Shown here one piece after another: positions 45,500-46,240 of a stretch of 64,000 bases of DNA. Origin of the DNA: Escherichia coli (GTDB taxonomy: Bacteria; Pseudomonadota; Gammaproteobacteria; Enterobacterales; Enterobacteriaceae); assembly GCF_003334305.1 (NCBI RefSeq), contig NZ_QOWS01000003.1, one strand, 5' to 3'. Positions within the stretch are counted from its first letter, which is position 1; each line of letters begins with the position of its first letter. The translations under genes were made by a program, and so were the position numbers. The notes beneath the pieces were generated by a model that made no database searches, was not told the DNA's origin, and was given only the letters and a program-made list of their open reading frames with translations.

Positions 45500-46240
45500 A
45501 TGTTAGATCAAGTATGCCAGCTTGCACGGAATGCAGGCGATGCCATTATGCAGGTCTACGACGGGACGAAACCGATGGACGTCGTCAGCAAAGCGGACAA
45601 TTCTCCGGTAACGGCAGCGGATATTGCCGCACACACCGTTATCATGGACGGTTTACGTACGCTGACACCGGATATTCCGGTCCTTTCTGAAGAAGATCCT
45701 CCCGGTTGGGAAGTCCGTCAGCACTGGCAGCGTTACTGGCTGGTAGACCCGCTGGATGGTACTAAAGAGTTTATTAAACGCAATGGCGAATTCACCGTTA
45801 ACATTGCGCTCATTGACCATGGCAAACCGATTTTAGGTGTGGTGTATGCGCCGGTAATGAACGTAATGTACAGCGCGGCAGAAGGCAAGGCCTGGAAAGA
45901 AGAGTGCGGTGTGCGCAAGCAGATTCAGGTCCGCGATGCGCGCCCGCCGCTGGTGGTTATCAGCCGTTCCCATGCAGATGCGGAGCTGAAAGAGTATCTG
46001 CAACAGCTTGGCGAACATCAGACCACGTCCATCGGCTCTTCGCTGAAATTCTGCCTGGTGGCGGAAGGACAGGCGCAGCTGTACCCGCGCTTCGGACCAA
46101 CGAATATTTGGGACACCGCCGCTGGACATGCTGTGGCCGCAGCTGCCGGAGCGCACGTTCACGACTGGCAGGGTAAACCGCTGGATTACACTCCGCGCGA
46201 GTCGTTCCTGAATCCTGGGTTCAGAGTGTCTATTTATTAA
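45500..46240 (+). CDS. cysQ: 3'(2'),5'-bisphosphate nucleotidase
   Basis: 246-aa ORF with inositol-monophosphatase-family motifs (DPLDGT). Confidence 0.95.

Follow-up and report, generated by a model that had tools for sequence, protein, structure and literature searches.

Convergent overlap of cysQ and ytfJ in Escherichia coli and the ytfI segment that separates the two genes in K-12-type genomes

The cysQ-ytfJ junction

The genes cysQ and ytfJ are convergent and share their last nucleotides in the DNA analysed here, a stretch of 64,000 nucleotides of an Escherichia coli genome (contig NZ_QOWS01000003.1, assembly GCF_003334305.1) that is called the window below. The junction between them is made up of the following features:

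45500-46240, + strand: cysQ coding sequence, 246 aa, 3'(2'),5'-bisphosphate nucleotidase, with its stop codon TAA at 46238-46240
46230-46787, - strand: ytfJ coding sequence, 185 aa, YtfJ family periplasmic protein with the C-terminus ...DLLHKLINK
46230-46232, - strand: ytfJ stop codon TAG, the reverse complement of these positions, taken from the list of open reading frames and the raw sequence
46230-46240: 3'-end overlap of 11 nt, CTATTTATTAA, common to the convergent cysQ and ytfJ
46237-46249: empty insertion site of about 12 bp; at this place K-12-type genomes have the ytfI cassette, about 1,232 bp

Both products are well-defined members of their families. CysQ matches the NCBIfam model NF008182 end to end (526 bits, the cut-off being 379), and YtfJ matches TIGR01626 in the same way (306.5 bits, cut-off 151.1). 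Within CTATTTATTAA the stop codon of each gene sits within the final codons of its partner and, since both stop codons are unambiguous, the overlap is independent of the choice of start codons. The same 11-nt overlap is annotated by RefSeq/PGAP in a strain that is identical over this stretch (NZ_CP025849.1, our L002), where cysQ occupies positions 1601-2341 and ytfJ positions 2331-2888. The overlap of 11 bp described in the original prediction is thus exactly where the two stop codons place it.

There is hardly any chance that the overlap is an artefact of annotation or assembly. The gene ends are set by stop codons on both strands, the two proteins match curated family models over their full length, and the identical junction is found in thousands of complete genomes (3,795 of E. 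coli), which means that the contiguous junction of the window was not created by assembly. The genes cysQ and ytfJ are a genuine convergent (tail-to-tail) overlapping pair.

Upstream of this pair, the intergenic region between cpdB and cysQ contains a full-length match to the Rfam sRNA ES239 (RF02756; positions 45311-45433, + strand; 155.9 bits, the gathering score being 62), located directly upstream of the cysQ start.

The arrangement of the K-12-type chromosome (L001) is different. Its genes cysQ (1601-2341) and ytfJ (3554-4108, - strand) do not overlap, their stop codons being 1,212 bp apart, and ytfI (2553-3491) lies inside this interval. This ytfI segment is present at 100% identity in MG1655 records. 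In a global alignment of the window with L001, homology extends up to position 46237, approximately, and resumes at about 46249; a tblastn search of the window segment with YtfI gave no match, so that no YtfI-coding sequence is present in the interval. The statement of the original prediction that K-12 carries ytfI between cysQ and ytfJ, and that this gene is missing here, therefore agrees with both chromosomes; an identical overlap in K-12, which would have refuted it, was not seen. A second difference from K-12 was observed further along the stretch, between ytfK and paeA, where K-12 carries a 17-bp tandem duplication (two copies of AAAGTGCTATGCAGTAA, L001 4642-4675) and the window a single copy (47321-47337).

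The ytfI cassette and the history of the junction

The segment that separates cysQ from ytfJ in K-12-type genomes has already been described as a specific sequence inserted in the K-12 chromosome between these two genes and bound by H-NS, and it is absent from strains SE11 and SE15 (Higashi et al. 2016, PMC4720273, S10 Fig). This cassette is 1.2 kb long and has a G+C content of 34.6%, versus 49.8% in its flanks. Folding places a strong hairpin just past the cysQ stop and a second one between ytfI and ytfJ. The TATTT motif of the original overlap is found on both sides of the cassette, which is preceded by TCTATTTACTAA and followed by TATTTGAGCAACTT; because of this repetition, cysQ and ytfJ have each kept a stop codon. 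The short TATTT repeat may be a target-site duplication, or its presence could be coincidental. Neither an integrase or transposase nor inverted repeats at the termini were seen in the cassette. The C-terminus of YtfJ also depends on the cassette: the protein has 184 aa and ends in ...QKLLK in carriers, versus 185 aa ending in ...HKLINK in genomes without it. The low G+C content and patchy distribution of the cassette, together with the H-NS binding reported in PMC4720273, fit a segment that was acquired horizontally and is silenced by H-NS.

The protein encoded by this segment has few relatives. YtfI gives no Pfam match, even at E<=10, and no NCBIfam match. A search of 5.8 billion clusters recovered relatives in 17 clusters, limited to Escherichia and Shigella, and the only matches of a phmmer search against 1.84 billion representatives were fragments of YtfI itself. 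Its alleles have diverged to as little as 69% identity, another variant being at 78%. The AlphaFold2 model is poor (mean pLDDT 50.9, from an alignment of 7 sequences). Judging from these searches, YtfI is a true orphan protein, restricted to its lineage. Two matches, to Cas6b in PADLOC (E=8e-4 over 41 residues) and to PHROG 3250 (E=1.7e-3), were weak and partial and were dismissed as noise.

Both states of the junction are common in E. coli. A probe of 111 nt across the junction, counted where it was contiguous, found the uninterrupted junction in 3,795 of 5,426 complete genomes (about 70%); 1,623 of them (about 30%) carry the ytfI segment. Carriers include K-12, O157:H7 and O55:H7, and genomes with the empty site include ATCC 25922 and an APEC O2:K1:H7 strain. 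K-12 and the window differ at 4-5 positions in the 100 bp nearest to the junction versus some 1 per 100 bp at a greater distance, a mildly raised divergence that is suggestive of old haplotypes. Since the proteins encoded by ytfI alleles diverge by as much as about 30%, the insertion is old, and the present distribution of ytfI must involve recombination or repeated replacement. The divergent alleles, together with the raised divergence by the junction, are consistent with an old dimorphism that has been shuffled by recombination.

To place these two states in a wider context, one genome per GTDB species was scanned with YtfJ, which yielded 80 loci of Enterobacteriaceae, and the ytfJ and cysQ stop codons were located in each. 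The 3' ends overlap in 74 of the 80 loci, by 11 nt (41 loci), 7 nt (27 loci) or 4 nt (6 loci). Overlapping loci are found in Citrobacter, Salmonella enterica subsp. arizonae, Klebsiella, Raoultella, Kosakonia, Enterobacter, Lelliottia, Trabulsiella, Kluyvera and several species of Escherichia other than E. coli. The junction is colinear among them (...GTNTCTATTTAYTRAGCARYTTRTGCAGCAGG...); for instance, only a change of GC to TT distinguishes the window from Klebsiella pneumoniae in this stretch. The empty site is also found in Escherichia whittamii, in two other Escherichia species and in one divergent E. coli (L003-L005, L007). The best 120 matches listed by the YtfJ protein search were all from Enterobacteriaceae.

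One locus, recovered under the title 'Chryseobacterium sp. 18061' (L028, CACSKA010000007.1), carries an enterobacterial ytfJ and cysQ, whose products are 81% and 90% identical, respectively, to those of the window. The assembly has probably been mislabelled or contaminated.

The conservation of the overlap in related genomes indicates that it is not an accident of one strain. On the strength of a colinear overlapping junction in 74 of 80 species, the overlap is best read as the ancestral arrangement of enterobacteria and ytfI as a derived insertion, the strain of the window having lost nothing. The converse history, in which ytfI was deleted from this strain or lineage and two gene ends were secondarily fused into the overlap, would draw on the age of the ytfI alleles, which are old and divergent in Escherichia (the variants at 78% and 69% identity and a 304-aa variant in L006), so that early members of the genus could already have had the gene. 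However, the empty junction matches colinearly, at every base, that of the 74 overlapping species loci, none of which shows ytfI, and a deletion would have had to re-create exactly the ancestral state of both the 11-nt overlap and the C-terminus of the 185-aa YtfJ. Moreover, the site is also empty in E. whittamii and the other Escherichia genomes mentioned above, and YtfI was not detected outside Escherichia and Shigella. A deletion is thus very improbable. It is highly probable that the window retains the ancestral 11-nt overlap and that K-12 and O157:H7 carry a derived ytfI cassette; empty and occupied alleles now coexist in E. coli. On this reading, a subset of Escherichia lineages acquired, inside the ancestral overlap, an AT-rich cassette of 1.2 kb containing ytfI and its flanking hairpins.

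The remaining 6 of the 80 species loci do not overlap, and their cysQ/ytfJ junctions are occupied by various inserts:

L006: divergent ytfI, the 304-aa variant
E. albertii, L008 4056-5559: low-G+C pentapeptide-repeat protein of 385 aa
Citrobacter youngae ATCC 29220, L045 4059-6178: radical SAM/SPASM enzyme and TIGR04222 membrane protein with a Cys/Gly/Ser-rich tail
Two Kluyvera species, L059 and L062 4056-4960: S11 DD-carboxypeptidase-like protein
K. intermedia, L068 4056-4126: hairpin remnant of 71 bp

This independent occupation by unrelated cargo in several species points to the junction as a recurrent and tolerated landing site.

The original prediction had presented the locus as a difference between K-12 and this strain in which ytfI is absent. 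The difference is real, although its framing as an absence has to be reversed: with the overlap ancestral (74 of 80 species, about 70% of E. coli), it is K-12 that is derived. At cysQ-ytfJ, K-12 is the exception and not the reference state. What is seen here is an ordinary presence/absence polymorphism, already documented, at an overlap of tail-to-tail genes that is conserved. It was already known, since the insertion of ytfI, and with it the difference between K-12 and other strains, is described in PMC4720273 and the overlap is routinely annotated.

Ends of the cysQ and ytfJ transcripts

Because there is no intergenic DNA between the two genes, each transcript would have to end inside the coding region of its partner. 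No convincing canonical intrinsic terminator (a G+C-rich stem-loop followed by a U-tract past the stop) was found at cysQ/ytfJ, and a pattern scan for terminator-like sites gave 4, versus 2.0 +/- 1.4 in shuffled sequences, which is no excess. The neighbouring convergent pair ytfK/paeA, unlike cysQ/ytfJ, has a canonical hairpin followed by a T-run. Three elements near the end of cysQ were considered:

46208-46224, + strand: hairpin A, located within the final codons of cysQ, CTGAATCCTGGGTTCAG with a T-rich run after it; resembles a terminator in pattern only
46249-46273, + strand: hairpin B, candidate determinant of the cysQ 3' end, UGCAGCAGGU-CCAUC-ACUUGCUGCA, with a 10-bp stem
46241-46420, + strand: C-rich, G-poor RNA past the cysQ stop, antisense to ytfJ, with a C/G ratio of 1.6-1.9

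Hairpin A was rejected as a terminator of cysQ. It is not conserved (86% paired, with one pair broken in 27 sequences and no covariation), and a transcript ending 7-9 nt past its stem would stop before the cysQ stop codon.

Hairpin B starts 9 nt past the cysQ stop, within codons V172-H180 of ytfJ, and folds on both strands. Across 73 distinct sequences of Enterobacteriaceae, 99.5% of the cells of its stem are paired. Six of nine pairs are invariant, and these provide no evidence of covariation since they never vary. One pair does vary (GC in 67 sequences, AU in 3 and GU in 3), and the one compensatory pair of the hairpin traces to a single clade of Escherichia. The hairpin is followed by CCUCUUCC, which is not a U-tract, and no Rfam family matches the cysQ/ytfJ junction. 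The RNA beyond has a C/G ratio of 1.6-1.9 over some 180 nt past the cysQ stop, versus about 1.0 past the ytfJ stop, and is rut-like by composition only. A 91-aa open reading frame that starts at the ATG of the hairpin (46248-46523, + strand) was discarded as an artefact of an in-phase antisense frame with few stops.

A conserved stem-loop 9 nt past the cysQ stop, with C-rich, G-poor RNA beyond it, makes a non-canonical determinant of the 3' end plausible. The claim of the original prediction that the overlap implies no terminator between the two genes stands in part: the genes leave no space between them, and a convincing canonical terminator was not found. As a general denial it was too strong, given this stem-loop. 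Hairpin B, followed by the C-rich, G-poor tract, would be the most likely determinant of the cysQ 3' end. It could block exonucleases after Rho-dependent termination, which would leave a trimmed end; alternatively, it could be a pause or collision point of converging polymerases, and not a terminator of the hairpin-plus-U-tract type. That hairpin B marks the end of cysQ through Rho-dependent or collision-type termination, with trimming or pausing, is put forward as a tentative possibility.

The codons that form the hairpin bear on whether it has been selected as RNA. When the ytfJ codons of 82 loci are aligned, the stem codons V172, Q173, Q174, L178 and L179 have the lowest synonymous entropy among the conserved Val, Gln and Leu columns, and neighbouring Leu codons of the gene reach 1.4-2.3 bits. 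An amino-acid-matched permutation gave p ~2e-5 for the stem codons, a value that is indicative only, as the region was picked after inspection. At the varying pair the intermediates are always CAA+CTG (in three lineages) and never the reverse; this combination leaves a G.U pair on the + strand and an A.C mismatch on the ytfJ-sense strand, which weakly favours the + strand RNA (cysQ read-through) as the species that folds.

These same codons can be explained without any function of the RNA. In enterobacteria, CAG is the Gln codon and CTG the Leu codon used most often, and the hairpin might only reflect the preferred codons (CAG, CTG, GTG) of a conserved V-Q-Q...L-L-H peptide, with both transcripts running on until stopped by Rho or by collisions at positions that are not defined. 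The stem does consist of the preferred CAG and CTG codons, CAGCAG and CTGCTG are complementary by construction, six of the nine pairs never vary, and neither a U-tract nor an Rfam family match is present. However, other conserved Leu, Gln and Val codons of the same gene vary freely in the same 82 sequences (Leu up to 2.3 bits), whereas each of the five stem codons is the least variable of its class. In addition, the only stem pair that varies passes from G-C to A-U through G.U on the + strand, in three lineages, and never through the opposite intermediate. Codon preference has about an even chance of being the whole explanation, and it is at least as likely as hairpin B setting the cysQ 3' end. 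The fuller proposal is that hairpin B is a selected RNA element, kept by synonymous-site constraint in at least 74 species of Enterobacteriaceae, that would set the 3' end of cysQ or a point of polymerase pausing or collision, and that the K-12 cassette would have uncoupled the two genes and substituted terminators of its own; this appears rather unlikely. A conserved hairpin embedded in coding sequence offers a simple test case for how transcripts end at convergent genes without intergenic DNA.

Comparison with known systems

Short tail-to-tail overlaps are a known class in prokaryotic genomes. The cysQ/ytfJ pair is an ordinary example of it, and its overlap is likewise kept over long evolutionary distances.

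One locus for comparison is cysQ-ytfI-ytfJ of K-12 MG1655 (b4214-b4216). The order cpdB, cysQ, ytfJ, ytfK, paeA (ytfL) is the same in both and the sequences are about 98% identical. Only MG1655 has the cassette of 1.2 kb and 35% G+C with ytfI (312 aa) and two hairpins, whereas the window has the 11-nt overlap in its place. The locus of SE11 and SE15 described in PMC4720273 is in the same state as that of the window, with cysQ and ytfJ adjacent and without ytfI. The 3' overlap, the extent of its conservation among genera and the stem-loop embedded in ytfJ are not discussed in that report.

With respect to termination, the nearest parallel is provided by the bidirectional terminator elements of convergent E. 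coli genes, at which termination is driven by collision (Ju et al. 2019, as cited in Wang et al. 2022, bioRxiv 10.1101/2022.10.23.513370). Hairpin B, a candidate for such an element, differs from them in lying inside the ytfJ coding sequence and not in an intergenic region. It is located 17 nt upstream of the ytfJ stop, and a polymerase that paused there on the ytfJ strand would not yet have reached that stop. Like these elements, hairpin B is a stem-loop that can form in the RNA of either strand, located at a convergent boundary and without a canonical terminator sequence.
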